From Candidatus Obscuribacteraceae bacterium (GTDB lineage: Bacteria; Cyanobacteriota; Vampirovibrionia; Obscuribacterales; Obscuribacteraceae), in contig JBGASG010000008.1 in NCBI GenBank assembly GCA_044229845.1, forward strand, positions 96,001 to 160,000: 64,000 nt of DNA, given 5' to 3'. Both the position numbers and the translations under genes were made by a program. Each line of letters starts with the position of its first letter. Position 1 is the first letter of the stretch. The notes beneath the pieces are model-generated. The model was not told where the DNA came from, searched no databases, and worked only from the letters and a program-made list of their open reading frames with translations. Below are positions 4,089 through 53,554 of the stretch, piece by piece.

Positions 4089-6914
4089 GTGACGCAAGGC
4101 ACATTCGCCAAACGGCCATCGGAAAATTCATCGCTAAATGGTAAAAATGTTCCTCCGACCTTGGGGACGAGGTTGAAGCGCCTGGTCAGGGATGTCTCAG
4201 GTGGAGCCAGGCGCTTCTTCCCTCAAATCGCTGATGGCGCCACTGCCGGCAGTGCCGTATGTCCGGCGCAGGAACCGTCCGTTTCTCACCAATCGTTGGT
4301 CTCGCCCGGCTGGCCGACACCGGCCGAAACGCTGCAGCCGGTGCCTCCGCAGCAGGCATCCGGCCGGCAGCAGTCGTCCGAGTCGTCGCACCACGCCTCC
4401 GGTTCGCCCCCTACCGACTCCGAGAGGTTCAACTCGTGGGCCGATGTCTGTTTCTTGCACGCCCTGCCCGGCGGCGATGAGGATCAAGAAGCAATTGCCG
4501 TTCTGCGCGACGGTTCACTGAGACGTTTCATTTCCTGCAAAGGTATAAATGCACTACTCTCCGATCACCACGACCAGGAGTTTTTGGCACGCCAGTTCGC
4601 CAACCTGGCGAACATAGCCGACTGCGACATGCAAATCATCGTCACGTCGCGCAACCTGCCGGTCGAAGAATACCTGAGCAAATACCAGCAACTGATCAAA
4701 ACCGACGACACGTACCTCAAATGGTATTCATCGTATACAGACACGTGGTTCCGGCTTATGCAGGAAGTTTCGTTCGTGCCTCAGCGCGAGTTCTACGTGA
4801 TCGTTTCGTACACACCGCCCGATGCTCTGGCAGGCTCTCAGTGGAAGAAACGCAGCAAAGCTCAGCATGAGGAATTCGTCGCGCGTCTCGACCGCATCAC
4901 CAAAACTGTCGGCGAGCAATTGCGTCAGTCGGGACTTCGTCCTTCCATCATGTCGATACGCGAGGTGCGGCAACTCATTTATCACCACCTCAATCCCAAT
5001 TTGAGTAAGCGCGATCCGGTACCACCGCCGCGCTCGGCACACAACAGCGAAGCGTCGTCGCTAGCGCGCTCCGCCCTGTCTATCAACTGGAACCACATCA
5101 AGCTCGACAACTCGTATATCGGCTCACTCTACATGGCGGAACCACCTCATGAAACATGGTTTGGATGGATGTCTGATCTGCTCACGCTTGGCGTGGAATA
5201 CACACTGTCAATCTTTATCCATAAGTGCGATCAGGAGCAGGTTAGAAAACAACTTGCGCACAAGCACCGGGTCAGCTACGCCTGCAATGCCGGACTCTTT
5301 GTACCAGACGTTGAGGGACTTGAAGCCACCCACACCGCTGCGACAGCAATTCAGGAATTCCTGCGCTCGTCAAATAAAGCTTTCGATGTAAGCATGTACA
5401 TACGCACGCATGCGTCATCGCTGCAGCAGCTGCGCTCGAACGCGGATGAAATTCGGCGCGTCTTCAACAATCGCGGCGCCCGCATGGAAATTGCGGACGG
5501 TATGCAATTCGCCACCTGGCAGGCAACGCTGCCGGTGGGCGTTGATACCATCGCCATTACTCATCGCCTCATGTCCCCGATTGTGGGCACCATGTGGCCC
5601 TTCTTCACCGCCAGTTGCGGCACACCGGACGGAGTGCCGTTCGGCTTTGCCCTGGCATCGCGCGAGCCGGTGCTGCTCAATCCGTTTTTCCGCGGCTCGG
5701 GCAAGGACGCCAATAATATGTTTGTGGTCGGGACGACGGGCGCCGGCAAGTCGTTCGCCATGTCGATGCTGATGCTGCGCCTGCTCCCCATGGGCATGAA
5801 ATTTGTTTTGATCGACAAGACCATCGATAAGAATGGGTCATACAGATTTATCACCGATTTGCTGGGACCGGAGATGTGCGCTTACATCGACCTGGGACCC
5901 AGTTGCGGTCAGGTGATCAATCCCTTCGATCTGGGACCGGATGACAAAATCGGCGCACCATCAGCCAGCAAGCTGGAGTTCTTGCTGATGCTGCTGGACA
6001 TTATGTTAGCGCCGCAAGACCAAGAAGAAATGAATGTCGAAGACAAGGCTTTACTGGACGAGCTGCTGCGCGAAGCCTATCGCGAAGCAGGGACGCGCGA
6101 CACGATTCCGACTATGACCGACTTGATGCGCGTCACAGAAGCGGCGGCGAAGGCAGATTCGGAACCTGCACAGAGAGACCGTTATCTCTGCCTTTCGCGC
6201 GCCCTCAAATTGTTCACCAACGGCAGTTCGTATGGTGGCTTTATCGACGGCATGACCAACGTAGACACCGACAAGATGTTCATCGTGTTTGACACGCGCG
6301 AGGTGAATGACCCGCGCCTGGAACGCATGGCAGCGTTCTTGCTGGCGGAATTCGTGCGCCGCAAAGCGCAGGAAAACAAGGCCCGCAAAATCAAGTTTGC
6401 GGCGATCATTGATGAGGCGGCGACGCTGATGCGGTTTAAGGCTGGTGCCAGGTTGCTGGATGATCTGTCCCGGCGCGGGCGTCAATACGGGATGATGCTG
6501 GTGACGATTACACAGCAGTTGAAGGACTTTTTCCGGCAGGCGGAGATTGCCGACAGCGTGGTGAAGAATGCGCATATGAAGATATTGCTTCGTCAGGATG
6601 CGAGCGACTTGCAATTGTTGCGCGACGTTTTGCGATTGAACGACCCAGAGATTGCCGCCATCGCGAACTTTTCGCGCGACGAAGAAAAGCGCAAGGACAG
6701 CCAGTGTCTATTGATAGTTGGCGGTGTGAGGGGCACGTTGCGCTTGATTCCGTCACCGATGGATTATTGGGTGTGCACGTCCGAACCAATCAACGACATT
6801 CCGAAACGCAAAGAAATCATCGTCGAGTTGCGCGAACAATTTCCGGAGATGGATGAGTTGTCCCTGGTGCGGCGCGCCGTCTACGAACTCGGCATGCGCA
6901 CCGCCAATCAGTAA
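4089..6914 (+). CDS. VirB4/TraC/ConE-like conjugative or T4SS ATPase
   Basis: Walker A GTTGAGKS, Walker B IIDEA, RRGRQYG, ITQQ and INPFD motifs; 941 aa with a low-complexity N-terminus. Confidence 0.85.
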   Translation: MTQGTFAKRPSENSSLNGKNVPPTLGTRLKRLVRDVSGGARRFFPQIADGATAGSAVCPAQEPSVSHQSLVSPGWPTPAETLQPVPPQQASGRQQSSESSHHASGSPPTDSERFNSWADVCFLHALPGGDEDQEAIAVLRDGSLRRFISCKGINALLSDHHDQEFLARQFANLANIADCDMQIIVTSRNLPVEEYLSKYQQLIKTDDTYLKWYSSYTDTWFRLMQEVSFVPQREFYVIVSYTPPDALAGSQWKKRSKAQHEEFVARLDRITKTVGEQLRQSGLRPSIMSIREVRQLIYHHLNPNLSKRDPVPPPRSAHNSEASSLARSALSINWNHIKLDNSYIGSLYMAEPPHETWFGWMSDLLTLGVEYTLSIFIHKCDQEQVRKQLAHKHRVSYACNAGLFVPDVEGLEATHTAATAIQEFLRSSNKAFDVSMYIRTHASSLQQLRSNADEIRRVFNNRGARMEIADGMQFATWQATLPVGVDTIAITHRLMSPIVGTMWPFFTASCGTPDGVPFGFALASREPVLLNPFFRGSGKDANNMFVVGTTGAGKSFAMSMLMLRLLPMGMKFVLIDKTIDKNGSYRFITDLLGPEMCAYIDLGPSCGQVINPFDLGPDDKIGAPSASKLEFLLMLLDIMLAPQDQEEMNVEDKALLDELLREAYREAGTRDTIPTMTDLMRVTEAAAKADSEPAQRDRYLCLSRALKLFTNGSSYGGFIDGMTNVDTDKMFIVFDTREVNDPRLERMAAFLLAEFVRRKAQENKARKIKFAAIIDEAATLMRFKAGARLLDDLSRRGRQYGMMLVTITQQLKDFFRQAEIADSVVKNAHMKILLRQDASDLQLLRDVLRLNDPEIAAIANFSRDEEKRKDSQCLLIVGGVRGTLRLIPSPMDYWVCTSEPINDIPKRKEIIVELREQFPEMDELSLVRRAVYELGMRTANQ

Positions 6915-7124
6915 TTCGATCAAGCAGCTCCGCGACGGACGGCGAATATCAGTGCGCGAATACTTGCGCGCGCTCTGCATGCATGTCTCCTGACGACCGG
7001 GTGATTTAATCACTTGGCTTGAACTTTTTCGCGGGTCGCAACGTACTAGTGAACAGACCTAAGTAGTCCGTCTTTCACATCACCCGCTGCTGGCATTCAC
7101 CAGCGGTTAAAGAGGCTCGTCTTT

Positions 7125-7922
7125 ATGACTATGAGAATCGATCACAACTTGATCAATTGGAATGCGCCGCTCGACGATATCCGCGACCACACGGAATTCG
7201 ATGCTGTTTTCACTCAAGATCTTTTGAATGCGAGGTTTAGTGTTCAGGCAAAGAGCCCATTCATCGGGCTGCCTCGCCTTCAGCGGCTAGGGGAGCCACT
7301 GCTTGGTTTGCCAGAACGCGGAGTCCGCTTGTGCATTTTCATTCGCGTTCCCGATGCTTGGGAAGTTCGCAACTCAATCAACACAATCGATGCAGCTAAG
7401 GCCAGAAGGATAGAAGATGCGATCAACCTGCTAGAAGCTGCTGGCGCTCACATCAATCTTATCCAGGGAATTCATCAAAAAGTCTGTGTCATGGATGGCT
7501 GCGTTGTGTACCGCGGCAGCCTCAATATCTTGAGTTTCTACAACAGTGAGGAAGAGATGATGCGCAAGGTCAACGCAAAAGAAGCACTACAGGCAATGAC
7601 TTACAGCGGTATCGATAGATGCTTTTGCGCCGGTCCACCCGCCGTAGAGTTGCTTGCAAATCCAGACATCATCGGACAGCAGTTGCTTCGGATTCGCGAA
7701 AGTCTAAATCTGACACAAGAACAGGTGTGTGAAACTCTCAACAAAATTGACCCTTCGCTATTGAGTAGGATCGAAAGCCAAAAACGGGAGCCGTCGTTCA
7801 GGCAAGTTGCGCAAATTGGTGAAGCTCTTGGTCGCGGAGTAGGTCTGCTCCTTCCCAGCCAAATTCATTATCTCGACCAAATCGAATGCGTGATGCGAGA
7901 AAATGCAACACGCTCACGATAG
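7125..7922 (+). CDS. PLD-like (HKD) domain fused to a C-terminal XRE/Cro-C1 HTH
   Basis: HQKVCVMD...GSLN (HxKxxxxD-GSxN); C-terminal IRESLNLTQEQVCETL...LLSRIESQKREPS; AGAGG RBS upstream. Confidence 0.75.
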   Translation: MTMRIDHNLINWNAPLDDIRDHTEFDAVFTQDLLNARFSVQAKSPFIGLPRLQRLGEPLLGLPERGVRLCIFIRVPDAWEVRNSINTIDAAKARRIEDAINLLEAAGAHINLIQGIHQKVCVMDGCVVYRGSLNILSFYNSEEEMMRKVNAKEALQAMTYSGIDRCFCAGPPAVELLANPDIIGQQLLRIRESLNLTQEQVCETLNKIDPSLLSRIESQKREPSFRQVAQIGEALGRGVGLLLPSQIHYLDQIECVMRENATRSR

Positions 7923-7962
7923 GAGTTGACTTGCTCAGATGAACCCTTGGATCGGAGCTGGG

Positions 7963-8101
7963 TTTTTGTCAAGTTTTTCGGCAGTTTGGTTGACAAATCA
8001 GTGTTCCAGACTCGATTTTGTCAAGTTTTCCGGCGGTTTGGTTGACAAATTCGTGCGCATGCATCAGTTTTGTCAACTTATCCAGCACGTTTGTTGACAA
8101 A
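7963..8101. repeat. Array of three TGTCAA-N17-TTGACA inverted-repeat units at 52-bp pitch (copy 1)
   Basis: TGTCAA at 7967, 8019, 8071; TTGACA at 7990, 8042, 8094. Confidence 0.9.
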
Positions 8102-8257
8102 CGAGTCGAACGGCTCTGTGAACAGCGAGCCTTTCGCTTCGCATCACCCTGCGGAGAATTTTCCGAGAACATTTGTACGACATGGGCTAGGAACTTGCTC
8201 ACTTGATCGTCGTCACCCTCAACGACGTTAGATCTAACTGGAGGCCGTGAGTCAATA

Positions 8258-8875
8258 ATGCCCGAAGGAAAGAAATCCTCTACTACGAAGAAGTCGGCGA
8301 GCAGCGCGAAGAAAGCAAGTTCTGCTCGAAAGCCGACGAAGAAATCTGCGGCATCAAAACCAGCTGCCGCAAGGAAGAAACCAGCCGCGAAGAAACCGGC
8401 CGCCACTAAAAAATCGGCCGCCAAGTCTACCGCCGCCAAAAAGCCGGCTGCGAAGAAAGGAGCATCGCCGCGTAAGAGTGTGACCGCAACGAAGAAATCA
8501 ACCGCGATGGCGACGAAGAAGGGCGCCGCGGCGAAGAAGGGTGCAACCGCGAAGAAACCTTCTGCCAAGAAGGCACCAGCCAAGAAAGGCGCTGCCACTA
8601 AATCTGCGCCGAAGAAGTCGGCTGCGAAATCTACTGCGAAAAAATCCGCGCCGAGGAAAGCGGCGACCGGCTCCACAAAAGCCAAAGGCGCGACAAAACG
8701 GAAGACCAGCGGCACACGCAAGTCGGCTCCTAAAGGACCGATCGAAACCGTGAAGGCAGTGCTCAGCACTATCGTCGAAAACATCACCGGCGGCGAAAGC
8801 ACCAATTCCAATAGCGAAGGCGAAGCGAAAAACGCCGAATCCGAGGAAAAGGCAACCGACCATCAAGGTCAGTAG
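8258..8875 (+). CDS. Lys/Ala-rich histone H1-like (nucleoid-associated) protein
   Basis: ~165 residues of KKPAAKK/KKSAAK repeats followed by an acidic tail; GGAGG upstream. Confidence 0.7.
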   Translation: MPEGKKSSTTKKSASSAKKASSARKPTKKSAASKPAAARKKPAAKKPAATKKSAAKSTAAKKPAAKKGASPRKSVTATKKSTAMATKKGAAAKKGATAKKPSAKKAPAKKGAATKSAPKKSAAKSTAKKSAPRKAATGSTKAKGATKRKTSGTRKSAPKGPIETVKAVLSTIVENITGGESTNSNSEGEAKNAESEEKATDHQGQ

Positions 8876-21513: not shown

Positions 21514-23421
21514 ATGACGGACAGCGACTCGATTACCGACCGGCTGTTTGACGGCAAATATGTCTTACTCGGCCGAGCGGGAGAAGGCGGGCACGGCGAA
21601 GTTATGCGCGCCCTCGACCGCGACCTCGACCGCATCGTGGCCATCAAAATGCTCACCAGAGGGCATGCTCAAAAGCCTCATGCCATCAACCGCCTGCAAC
21701 GGGAGGCGCTGCTCCTCAGCAAGCTGGATCACCCCAATATCGCCCGCGTTTACTCCTTCGCAGTGACACCAGAAGGGACGCCCTATCTGGTCATGGAGTA
21801 TCTGCAAGCAAATACACTCTCGCAGCGTATTGCATCAAGCGGCACCTTTTCCATTGAGGACTGGAGCGTGGTGGCAAGACAGCTGTGCGATGCAATTTCA
21901 TACGCGCATGCACAAAACGTCATCCACCGCGACATCAAACCGCAAAACATATTACTCGTGCAGGCAGAAGGTCCGGGCGGAGCCGCCGCCGGTGGATTTT
22001 TCGTCAAGCTGGTCGACTTCGGCATGGCCAAACCCGCCGACTCCGAACCGACTTCACTGATCACCACAGGCAGCAACCCCAATATCGGCACGCCGATTTA
22101 CGCCAGCCCCGAGCAATATGGTGCCGGTCACATCGATCACCGCACAGACATCTATTCTCTGTCTTGCGTTTTTTATGAAATGCTGGCCGGCAAACCGCCT
22201 TACGTTGGCGGCACAGTCTTTGAAACCATGATGTACAAACTGGAGACGACCGCTCCGTTGATCCCGGCACTCGTGTACTATCCGGCTCTGGAAGCGGCGC
22301 TCTTGAAAGGACTCTCTCCAAAGTCGGAGGATCGTTTTCAGACCATCAATGAATATCGCGAAGCGATCGAAGCGGCATTGCAGGCTCCGGCATCTTCACG
22401 GCAGCAGTCCAATAATAAGGCAAAGCTGCGTCTGCCACGCGTTTCAAAGCTGAGCACCGTCACTTTCGCAGTCATCCTGTCTGCCCTCGTCGCCATCGGA
22501 TGTCTGGCCTATTTGCAAACTCGTCCCGGCAGTGACACCACCGGCGACGGCGAAGTACACTACGCCACCTGGAAGGATGCCCTCAAAGAGGCGCAAGCCG
22601 TCTCCGACCTGTATGTCGTCAGCAGGCTCCCCGAGGACGGCTTTCGAGCTGGTAAGACATTCGAGCAGGCAATTCTTGTCGCCGATCGCACGGCACGCGA
22701 GGTCGATCCGCAACTGCGGTTCGCATCGCCGTCCGATCAGCAACTGCATCTCGACCGCATCGATGCACGCCTGCACGCGGCCCGTTTCTATCTGAGAAGC
22801 AGTAACTTTGTAGAAAATCGAGTAGTCATGGCGAAACGCTTTTTGCGAGAAGCCGGCAACATCATTGACGAGTTGCAGTCCAACCAGTTTCCGCTGACAG
22901 CAGATTTGATGCGGCGCAACTGGATTTTGCTGGACGCCCTCTCCTTCGGCTATCTGGAGCACGAAGAAGCGGAGAAAGCGCAGCCATACGCTGAGAATTC
23001 GCTGCAGTTGAGAATAGATGGTGGCGGCACAGAAACCGATTTGTTTTGGGGACGCCAGAGGTTGGCTGAAACAATGCTCGGACAGTCCAACTTTGACGGT
23101 GCACTACCGCTGGTGACAACCAATCTGGAAGACCTCCGCAAGGGCGGCATCATTACTAAAGATGTGGAAGCAGTCTGGGCGCAAAACCTGATCTTGTGGA
23201 ATCAGGCCAAATATCACCAGATCGGCGCCACGAAAGTGCTGAGTTCCTGCGAAGAGTGGCTTCCCCCCGGCTGCGTCGACAAGGAAGCAATACACCTGGT
23301 CATGACGGGCACGCTAGTGGGCCGCAAAGCTAATGCAGAACTGTGTAAGCAGTGGGGCTTCCAACTGCCTACAGGCAATCAGGTGCGCATATTCATTTCT
23401 CCGCCACGAGACCAGATTTGA
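21514..23421 (+). CDS. Membrane-anchored Hanks-type Ser/Thr protein kinase with a helical/TPR-like C-terminal domain
   Basis: GEGGHG, VAIK, HRDIKPQN, DFG, GTPIYASPE, DIYSL; central TM helix. Confidence 0.92.
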   Translation: MTDSDSITDRLFDGKYVLLGRAGEGGHGEVMRALDRDLDRIVAIKMLTRGHAQKPHAINRLQREALLLSKLDHPNIARVYSFAVTPEGTPYLVMEYLQANTLSQRIASSGTFSIEDWSVVARQLCDAISYAHAQNVIHRDIKPQNILLVQAEGPGGAAAGGFFVKLVDFGMAKPADSEPTSLITTGSNPNIGTPIYASPEQYGAGHIDHRTDIYSLSCVFYEMLAGKPPYVGGTVFETMMYKLETTAPLIPALVYYPALEAALLKGLSPKSEDRFQTINEYREAIEAALQAPASSRQQSNNKAKLRLPRVSKLSTVTFAVILSALVAIGCLAYLQTRPGSDTTGDGEVHYATWKDALKEAQAVSDLYVVSRLPEDGFRAGKTFEQAILVADRTAREVDPQLRFASPSDQQLHLDRIDARLHAARFYLRSSNFVENRVVMAKRFLREAGNIIDELQSNQFPLTADLMRRNWILLDALSFGYLEHEEAEKAQPYAENSLQLRIDGGGTETDLFWGRQRLAETMLGQSNFDGALPLVTTNLEDLRKGGIITKDVEAVWAQNLILWNQAKYHQIGATKVLSSCEEWLPPGCVDKEAIHLVMTGTLVGRKANAELCKQWGFQLPTGNQVRIFISPPRDQI

Positions 23422-24226
23422 GTTCGCATCTGAGCACCGCTCGCGCAACGGAAAGTCCCGCGACTCGTTTGGCTCCGGCTTTCATAAGGGTGCGTGCCGC
23501 CTCCGACATGGTGGCACCGGATGTGTAAATGTCGTCGACGATCACGACCGTGCAGTCTGCAAGAGTTTCTCCCTGACGCAGCACCTTGCCGATACCGTCG
23601 TCAACTGAAAACGCCGCCTCCATATTGACTCGCCGCTCTTCTCTCGACAAAAGGTGATGGGCGTTGGTGGCGCGCGAGCGCTTCAGCAATCCGCGCACCA
23701 GCCTGGGAGGGCTCAGCACTGGCGATTGGCGACCGGTTTCAGTCCGCCGCAGTCGGCGCAGCATCTCTTGCGACAGAAGTTCCGCCTGGTTGAAACGACG
23801 TCGATACTGGCGTCGCCAGTGGAGCGGCACCGGCACTATCAAACAAGCCGAATCCGTCATTTCTCCCGCCAGTTGCTCGAAAGCTCGGCACAGCGGCTGC
23901 GACAGGTCTCGTGCGATCAAGCGATCGTTGTCGTACTTCAAGTGATACAACAGTTTCTTTGCCAGTCCATCATAGGCGGTGCCCGACGCCAGCGGGAACG
24001 CCCGCGAGTCATCCAGCGGCACCCATTCATATGAGGGCGCATCCGCGCTCAATTCGCTCCAGCAGCTTTCGCAAACAGTCAGTGTATGCGAGCGCGATGA
24101 TATGGGGCGATGGCAGCCGCGACAGTTTTCGCAGCAGAGAAAACCAAACAGAGTTTCCAGCATCTCAGTACCCCGTCTTCGCTCAGACCAGATTAAAGCC
24201 TTATCTGTATACGACGGAGCCGGCAA
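23393..24226 (-). CDS. comF: ComF-family protein (zinc ribbon + PRTase); start probably ~24163
   Basis: CxxC...CxxC, VPVPLHWRR, FNQAELL, IVDDIYTSGAT. Confidence 0.88.
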   Translation of the reverse strand: MPAPSYTDKALIWSERRRGTEMLETLFGFLCCENCRGCHRPISSRSHTLTVCESCWSELSADAPSYEWVPLDDSRAFPLASGTAYDGLAKKLLYHLKYDNDRLIARDLSQPLCRAFEQLAGEMTDSACLIVPVPLHWRRQYRRRFNQAELLSQEMLRRLRRTETGRQSPVLSPPRLVRGLLKRSRATNAHHLLSREERRVNMEAAFSVDDGIGKVLRQGETLADCTVVIVDDIYTSGATMSEAARTLMKAGAKRVAGLSVARAVLRCELKSGLVAEK

Positions 24227-24266
24227 AATAGTTCAATTCAAATAGTTCAGGAGGGTGCTGTTTCCT

Positions 24267-36366: not shown

Positions 36367-36503
36367 TCTGTCAAGTTTTGCCCCCGCCGAGTTGACAAAA
36401 CAGCGTTCGCAACACCAATTTGTCAACTTTTTCGACTTCCGGGTTGACAAAAAGCCGGTCGCAGCCCGGATCTGTCAACTTTTTTGATTTAGAAGTTGAC
36501 AAA
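36367..36503. repeat. Array of three TGTCAA-N17-TTGACA inverted-repeat units at 52-bp pitch (copy 2)
   Basis: TGTCAA at 36369, 36421, 36473; TTGACA at 36392, 36444, 36496. Confidence 0.9.
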
Positions 36504-38985: not shown

Positions 38986-39117
38986 ACTGCTGAGTTCAAA
39001 AAATCTGGGAATTTTTTGACATTTAATGCAAAACCTTTGAACTTTTTGAGGGGGTCGAGCGTTTTAGATCCTGTGGTCACCGGCAGAGACCGGTGAAGGA
39101 AACAAGGAGCGAACGCA

Positions 39118-39798
39118 ATGAAAACCCCCATATTCGTAGCAGTGGCAGCGGTTCTGGGTCTGGCAATGGCCCCCGTGATGGCGCAGGAGTCTCGACTTTC
39201 TCCAGCAATCGCCAGCGATTCGTCACCAGATTTGATCGCACAGCTTTCGACAACCGCTTCAGTGCCGGATAAGAAGAAGTTCGAGCTGTCGACGGAACAG
39301 TTGGAAAAATTGCATGCATTGAAAAACCAGTACAGCACCGCCAACAGCGCCAAGAAAGCTGAACTGAAGACTTTGAAAGGGCAACTGCGCGATGTGCTGA
39401 CGGCGGTTTCCGTCGACAAATCGCAAGCCTTGTCTCTGCAGGGCAAAATCAACGCCATCAAAGCCGATCTGGCTAACAGCCGCGTCAGCTTCATGGCTGA
39501 TGCCAGCACCGTGTTCACCACCGAGCAACGCCAGCAAATGCATCGTCGCGCTCTCATGCGTGGCATGGGCGGACATAGACACCACGGTGGTGGTGGCGGA
39601 TGCGGTGGCGGCTTCCGTGGTGGCAAAGGTCATCATGGCGGCGGACACGGCGGCTTCCATGGCAAACGCGGTTTCGGCGGTCCTGCTGGACCCGGCGTCC
39701 CCGGCGTCCCCGGCGGACCGGCAGGCTCAGCCAGCATCGATGGACCGGACAGCACCGCCAACACCATGCCGGAAGTCCCTGCTGACGACAACTCATAG
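39118..39798 (+). CDS. Spy/CpxP-family periplasmic protein with a Gly/His-rich tail
   Basis: Signal peptide; LSTEQ and FTTEQR (LTxxQ-like) motifs. Confidence 0.75.
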   Translation: MKTPIFVAVAAVLGLAMAPVMAQESRLSPAIASDSSPDLIAQLSTTASVPDKKKFELSTEQLEKLHALKNQYSTANSAKKAELKTLKGQLRDVLTAVSVDKSQALSLQGKINAIKADLANSRVSFMADASTVFTTEQRQQMHRRALMRGMGGHRHHGGGGGCGGGFRGGKGHHGGGHGGFHGKRGFGGPAGPGVPGVPGGPAGSASIDGPDSTANTMPEVPADDNS

Positions 39799-53314: not shown

Positions 53315-53554
53315 TTGACCGCAGTGGCGGCCAACAAAAGACATTTTTGACCGCAGTGGCGGCCAAACCTCGCATTTGTGGCCGCCGTGGCGGTCAAATG
53401 CTGCTGTGTCCGACCGCCGTGGCGGCCACCGCGAACGAAGCACATCGGCGCCGTCATCGATCCGCGCGCATCGATCCGTTGTCGGCATTGTCACCTCCCA
53501 CGTTGTCCGCCACGGCGGGCAAATCGAGCCATTCGTGTCCGCCAAGGCGGACAG
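53315..53554. repeat. Array of six 16-bp imperfect palindromes GNCCGC(C/A)-NN-GGCGGNC in 31-32-bp register
   Basis: Units start at 53317, 53349, 53380, 53412, 53505, 53537. Confidence 0.85.

Follow-up and report, generated by a model that had tools for sequence, protein, structure and literature searches.

A PLD-XRE-HTH gene and its adjoining helically phased dyad array are exchanged as one island in a sister genome of Obscuribacteraceae

What is known of the spread of short intergenic repeats in bacteria is an outline drawn from RAYT/REP. In the available text of one account, a chromosomal nuclease gene is flanked by its own intergenic repeats, the dispersal of these repeats tracks gene presence, a genome carries several paralogues with one repeat class each, classes switch at orthologous genes with the old repeats left behind, and frameshifted gene copies occur (PMC3686654). 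The locus described here resembles RAYT/REP in all these respects. Likeness to three further systems is evident. The AbiEi/Rv2827c proteins are dimeric HTH proteins that bind tandem inverted repeats, as the accessible part of one report sets out (PMC7319586). Nuc, NucT and Zucchini share with our protein a fold and the motif HxK(x4)D(x6)GSxN, one per chain, and each homodimer of single-HKD PLD members has a single active site, according to the portion available of another study (PMC10783504). Finally, accessory DNA can be deleted or added by transformation, and mobile elements that interfere with transformation are in conflict over the retention of such DNA; in the sections available, their strategies act cell-wide, through gene disruption, repression or the blocking of uptake (PMC12378983).

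The window, which is the whole 64,000-nucleotide stretch analysed, belongs to a Candidatus Obscuribacteraceae genome of 5.16 Mb in 22 contigs (G000), from an uncultured group related to cyanobacteria, and its main features are collected in Table 1. A first-pass annotation had reported three units with 17-bp spacers, 23-bp gaps and a 52-bp pitch, and this layout was recovered exactly, with units at 7967-7995, 8019-8047 and 8071-8099. Its suggestion of a dispersed element also holds. Six TGTCAA-N17-TTGACA matches lie in the window against none in each of 100 shuffles, and genome-wide a 17-bp spacer gives 15 exact units, compared with 0-3 for any other length in the range 0-40. These 15 units form six clusters, each a separate locus, with intervals of 52 bp in 8/9, and a PWM scan adds imperfect loci (19 sites of at least 20 bits versus 0 in the reversed genome). 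Among 41 relatives, TGTCAA units are enriched only in G001, a sister genome of the same genus that is ~95% identical in aligned blocks; it has nine units and the other 39 have 0-2. The doubled 52-bp geometry is found in 2/104 family genomes, and a species-wide collection yielded three matches, all in Ca. Obscuribacterales, one of them the orthologue of the second array in the window. Phage, plasmid and viral collections gave no match.

Table 1. Coordinates of the array-linked features in the window
Feature	Position	Strand	Description
ECF-type promoter-like motif	7018..7049	+	TTGAACTTTTT-N11-CGTA, upstream of the PLD-HTH gene
PLD-XRE-HTH gene	7125..7922	+	265 aa; single-HKD PLD nuclease-like domain (H117, K119, D124), Cys motif, C-terminal HTH_3 (Pfam)
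Swapped island	7200..8180	.	3' 90% of the PLD-HTH gene, the array and a ~80 bp tail
Dyad array	7965..8101	.	3 x TGTCAA-N17-TTGACA, pitch 52 bp = 5 helical turns
Second TGTCAA triple, orphan	36369..36501	.	Between a TPR gene and mnmA; kept in G001

The half-sites extend beyond the hexamers to approximately TTTGTCAA(C/G)TT, and the gaps between units frequently begin with AAACC and end with GGTTT. The filler does diverge, as had been noted, but these gap ends and extended half-sites mean that it is not wholly unrelated. Beyond the hexamers, the arms are complementary at 2.29/8 positions compared with 3.26/8 in shuffled pairs, and the gaps at 2.57/9 compared with 3.75/9. Arms that are less complementary than shuffled ones point to protein recognition of double-stranded DNA, not to a hairpin, and they uphold the proposal that half-sites and geometry are under constraint. 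These observations support the conclusion that the half-sites and their geometry are what the array keeps while its filler diverges. A hairpin or RNA role for the array was rejected given the under-complementary arms and the lack of any Rfam match at E<=1 for 6900-8300. In RNA contigs from four runs, which cannot show absence, the H1-like gene is covered from about 8234-8248; neither the PLD-HTH gene nor the array is covered, except by a single 151-nt contig that runs from 8100.

The PLD-XRE-HTH protein is likely to be the cognate binder and cutter of the adjoining array. Its structure model (pLDDT 85.7) has Nuc, NucT and Zucchini as best fold matches (Foldseek Nuc E 1.6e-7), with TrmBL2 also among the matches, and it combines the PLD fold with HxK(x4)D(x6)GSxN, the two marks of a single-HKD PLD nuclease. 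As each chain has one HKD motif, a homodimer active site is expected. The protein differs from Nuc, NucT and Zucchini in its fused Cys motif and XRE HTH and in having cognate genomic arrays, and a signal peptide or membrane anchor is not evident in its sequence. The HKD motif is present in 72/72 loci, and HxK(x4)D in 143/145 library matches. There are five intact copies of the gene in G000 and 10 in G001; full-length copies were counted by hand in about 30/104 genomes of the family and found in 0/120 genomes of the class that belong to other families. At 50% identity and E<=1e-30 the protein family comprises 403 clusters, and of the 10 looked up two are named, both generically. PADLOC returned single-domain matches only (the PLD part of MkoC, and HTH_VI), NCBIfam gave no match, the Atlas showed no PLD-HTH cluster, and a metagenome scan with a single PLD-HTH protein found no relative. 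Strains in two public runs (X13/X14) carry frameshift deletions in the PLD-HTH gene of the window, and the sole difference in their array sits in a gap.

Adjacency of arrays to the family was scored with a fixed detector, a repeated dyad within 350 bp of a homologue, leaving out the PLD-only loci L046 and L048. Arrays lay beside 20/52 homologues and then beside 7/20 in a later-fetched set, giving 27/72, compared with 90/2307 G000 genes with a long intergenic flank, 0/22 BI-1 loci and 1/186 distal windows; since the homologues are kin, p-values for this adjacency overstate its significance. In these 27 cases the array was downstream only in 17, upstream in eight and on both sides in two. Across the family, array pitches fall near multiples of 10.5 bp (R=0.66; for 17 distinct values R=0.57, p=0.004), in line with the phased layout proposed from the window and unlike G000 arrays overall (R=0.2). 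Supported protein clades have a common array geometry, such as TATNNN-N6-NNNATA at 31-34 bp in three genera.

The adjoining motifs are private to the genomes that carry them. All five intact G000 paralogues adjoin a different dispersed dyad family, with patterns drawn by eye, of 11-22 copies versus 0-2 in the reversed genome. In 5/5 further genomes tested, the motif beside the gene is dispersed at home and nearly absent elsewhere: 94 copies in G007 versus at most three per strand in 103 others, 51 in G085 versus 0, 7+7 in G069 versus at most one, five in G010 versus 0-2 in four others, and 11 in G041 versus 0 in four other genomes. The G041 motif is also missing (0 copies) from four congeners without a PLD-HTH gene, and its copies lie within 2.44-2.99 Mb, around the two PLD-HTH genes. 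Such a chromosomal territory is seen in G041 and partly in G010; it is not general, as the copies in G007 are spread over several contigs and the TGTCAC units of G001 over seven. Orphan arrays are found at gene 3' ends, beside unrelated genes. One doublet of the dyad family TGGCCGCCRYGGCGGTCA, the type adjoining the PLD-HTH paralogue at G000 C1:955k, is present in the window at 53379-53428. A third sibling type with a 52-bp pitch, TGTAAT-N17-ATTACA, occurs at G000 C19:478.5-478.9k, in one run with TGTCAC and TGTCAA, and at L099 and L101; as this type was found without a cognate gene, a third allele is predicted.

Comparison with G001 shows that the PLD-HTH gene and the array were exchanged as one island. 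Over about 1 kb, identity to G001 is 43-73% per 100 bp, compared with 87-100% in the flanks, and the orthologous place in G001 carries 3 x TGTCAC-N17-GTGACA, again at a pitch of 52 bp. The proteins encoded by the two alleles are 61% identical, and the first residues of what we take to be the recognition helix differ (DPSLLSRIES in the window, DRTLLSRIER in G001). This co-swap and the adjacency across the family make the PLD-HTH protein, one of two binders nominated by the first-pass annotation, the likely one. The other nominee, the H1-like protein, is rejected as a specificity partner because its gene lies outside the island and is about 99% identical in G001 although the array type has switched. 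The reading of TTGACA as a sigma-70 -35 box is likewise not supported, there being no promoter match and GTGACA standing at that place in G001. Genome-wide, TGTCAA and TGTCAC units number 15 and 4 in G000 and 9 and 16 in G001 (by unit p=0.006), and by locus the ratios of 6:3 and 5:7 do not differ significantly (p=0.39). As a weak control, which did not recover the empty ancestral site, virB4 loci in 28 other genomes match the other, operonic paralogue, with a PLD-HTH gene or array in 0/28. At 4089-6914 the window itself encodes another VirB4-like ATPase that is not part of the family-wide operon; this paralogue is present in both G000 and G001. In G001, a stretch directly after an expanded TGTCAC array (L096:2500-2600) resembles a group II intron 3' end.

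Once the allele has switched, copies of the new motif spread, and at distant sites they take over the positions of older arrays. G000 C8:134k and G001 C10:75k are syntenic and differ in both alleles and arrays; G001 has 14 copies of its motif and G000 has one, and the older motif persists in both genomes at 14 and 15 sites. At the orphan site C22:353k/C2, the G001 type stands in place of the G000 type. The PLD-HTH gene at G001 C16:24k is intact, and its motif occurs nine times in G001 versus once in G000; in the G000 counterpart the 5' part of the gene, the catalytic motif and the array are replaced by a short patch, which carries another dyad repeat. Replacement also takes place away from any PLD-HTH gene: at C8:632k/C41 a ~200-bp patch that begins directly after a stop codon is of the TGTCAA type in G000 and the TGTCAC type in G001, with flanks mostly 96-100% identical, and at C22:383k a TGTCAC unit is found in place of an array from another family.

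The replaced patches are 120-400 bp long with sharp ends and with varying lengths and flanks. No target duplication was seen at two clean insertions inspected, and an insertion sequence or MITE end was rejected on these grounds. For the unique patch flanks, no donor was found elsewhere in G000 or in a G001 sample of 0.78 of 6.4 Mb plus five loci. Array bodies are 70-89% alike between loci, and in some arrays the units are nearly identical and change in copy number. Orthologous intergenic regions were disrupted in 6/10 cases with arrays versus 22/243, a test in which gaps are counted and to which slippage therefore contributes; a stricter test gave 1/6 versus 4/210 (p=0.13). Syntenic blocks form a mosaic of 84 to 99.7% identity, as expected under frequent exchange. 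At G000 C21:42.4k (L189 versus L102), a TGTCAA array is followed ~100 bp further on by the start of a 1.8-kb deletion within a glycogen debranching gene.

The motif upstream of the window gene suggests a link to transformation. At 16 bits or more, TTGAACTTTTT-N11-CGTWT precedes 29 of ~4360 G000 genes, compared with 0/1500 reversed. This sharp regulon of about 29 genes spans transformation, replication, repair and envelope functions and includes YifB, which we take to be ComM, a ComF-like gene assigned below the curated cut-off, YraN, DnaB, PriA, an ECF sigma factor and TnpB. The motif stands before 3/5 G000 PLD-HTH genes, that of the window included. ComM and YraN process the transformation D-loop, as stated in the part of the source available (PMC13663708). 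Given the replication, repair and envelope genes in this regulon, the ECF-type motif may not mark competence, and the transformation link is the weakest step of the argument because the motif is seen at only 10/51 PLD-HTH homologues and the regulon is broader than competence. Two further copies of the motif lie in the window, at 24211-24237 (-) before the comF-like gene (23393-24022) and at 39036-39062 (+) before a gene (39118-39798) for a 226-aa secreted-looking protein.

These data allow us to hypothesise that PLD-XRE-HTH is a self-marking nuclease that biases putative transformation toward its own arrays, a proposal to which we give an even chance. The array would be the private DNA mark of the adjoining gene, and a PLD-HTH dimer would bind the phased half-sites through its HTH. 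By analogy with the biochemistry of single-HKD PLD proteins, the homodimer would be an active nuclease, and the promoter motif in common suggests that it is co-expressed with comM, comF and yraN. It might then act on transformation intermediates, cutting recombination intermediates near the array, so that short patches bearing its own type of array would be retained or acquired and those of a rival type overwritten. Unlike the cell-wide strategies of mobile elements, such a system would act locally, at marked sites, and it would be a selfish pairing of gene and repeat of a new kind. A broader version seems to us possible but doubtful: a transformation-powered gene-drive war among hundreds of fast-diverging PLD-HTH nucleases, each marking the chromosome with private phased arrays. 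Switched on with comM and yraN, the nucleases would resolve the recombination of incoming DNA toward their own mark, overwriting the arrays of rivals and even knocking out rival paralogues. If this were true, it would, together with the unrelated DUF6088 arrays, amount to a broad class of selfish genes steering transformation locally. Should the transformation link hold, a gene would have a cis-acting way to bias recombination around itself. The family would also supply small sequence-specific nucleases with the target written beside the gene. The natural allele pair, with 61% identical proteins and TGTCAA versus TGTCAC arrays, makes specificity directly testable.

Several other explanations need to be weighed against a self-marking nuclease. 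In a RAYT-like process of intragenomic copy-and-paste, PLD-HTH would recognise its own array and copy units to new intergenic sites, often within existing arrays, and transformation would play no role. The population pattern equals the orthoswitches of RAYT/REP, as far as these are described in the available text (PMC3686654), new types spread after allele switches, array bodies are alike between loci, and mixed arrays exist. Yet old DNA is replaced and not added to, the patch flanks are unique with no donor found in the sequence covered, target duplications are absent at the two insertions inspected, and the promoter motif of comM, comF and yraN is left unexplained, which together lead us to regard copy-and-paste as unlikely. 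The geometry could also arise from neutral processes, as slippage minisatellites, hairpins or stacked -35 boxes. Near-identical units with copy-number changes in some arrays and the folding of the single strand (z=-3.55) would fit, but geometry is kept while filler diverges, the arms are under-complementary, the arrays are enriched beside one gene family and a sigma-70 promoter match is absent. Adjacency to homologues, under-complementary arms and phasing largely refute neutral origins, which we consider very improbable.

Two alternatives remain. If PLD-HTH were a passenger beside pre-existing host repeats, the true binder would be another protein, for example a solo winged-helix protein of DUF6088/AbiEi-like type or one of the nucleoid. 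DUF6088 paralogues do have arrays with 52-bp units mixed in, an operator-like match exists at L144, and the fixed detector found no array at 45/72 homologues. However, a DNA-binding family was found in 0/19 neighbours scanned of 52-bp-family arrays (seven without a Pfam match), new motifs in G001 accompany new alleles in three cases, congeners without the gene are without the motif, and DUF6088 arrays have different half-sites; a passenger role is thus improbable. The arrays might instead be operators in the regulon of an XRE repressor, AbiEi/Rv2827c-like, with the sensor part played by the PLD domain, as in TrmB-like proteins. Operators built of tandem inverted repeats have precedent in the part of the report available (PMC7319586), TrmBL2 is among the fold matches, and the geometry recurs at L144, where a TA operon starts. 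Against operators stand the downstream-only position of 17/27 arrays, the orphans at 3' ends of unrelated genes, the replacement of whole patches at orthologous sites and the invariant catalytic motif, and we judge an operator regulon highly improbable.

In relation to described systems, the gene is bordered by its cognate repeats, which are scattered through intergenic DNA of the same genome, as for RAYT/REP. The window system differs in having PLD and XRE-HTH domains in place of an HUH enzyme, a helically phased pitch, short-patch replacement and the promoter motif of transformation genes, and in having no arm covariation. Four PF01797 (Y1_Tnp) matches occur in G000, all away from TGTCAA arrays. 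No REP tag GTAG/CTAC is present in window positions 7901-8200, where GGAG occurs only at 7922, 7954 and 8153 and not at unit ends, and no REP-type hairpin palindrome was found, the arms being less complementary than shuffled pairs. REP/RAYT membership was rejected since the HUH enzyme, the GT(A/G)G tag and arm covariation are all absent. The system is a second one of this sort, with unrelated parts and the same dynamics. The literature searched, which left most subscription papers and bioRxiv supplements outside, contained no account of a PLD-HTH/array system. We conclude that the system is undescribed and its components new, while its logic converges on RAYT/REP. The first-pass interpretation stands in part: it had missed the family-wide private motifs, the co-swaps of allele and array and the promoter of transformation genes.

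The 17/23/52 geometry was met once elsewhere, with TGTCAC half-sites, at the start of a DUF6088-AbiEii operon from an unrelated AT-rich organism (L144:121-212), the only metagenome match to the 52-bp geometry; on a plain reading this is an AbiEi-type operator. The window array differs from AbiEi operators in that it is downstream of its gene, dispersed, without a toxin partner and linked to a protein with an intact nuclease motif. An AbiE-type type IV TA operator was rejected, as the array lies 45 bp past the PLD-HTH stop and a tblastn search with the L144 toxin found no AbiEii homologue in G000. Solo DUF6088-like genes without a toxin occur in G000 at C21:2.5k, C7:46k, C2:79k, C1:297k and C1:561k, each with its own upstream dyad-repeat variant around a TTTTGGYACCARAA core, and constitute a second array-linked gene family. 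Their arrays differ in half-sites from the 52-bp family, and TGTCAA/TGTAAT units are mixed into them at three loci.

G000 also contains regionally confined families of short palindromes that are not helically phased, at C3:139-283k, C6:181-283k and C18:2-109k, with the sequences AAGCGATATCGCTT, AACCGA-N2-TCGGTT and AGTGATATCACT. The C3:139-283k zone includes an IS1595-like gene that has the ECF motif. Across the whole genome, GCACCA-N4-TGGTGC occurs 63 times versus about 2.5 expected.
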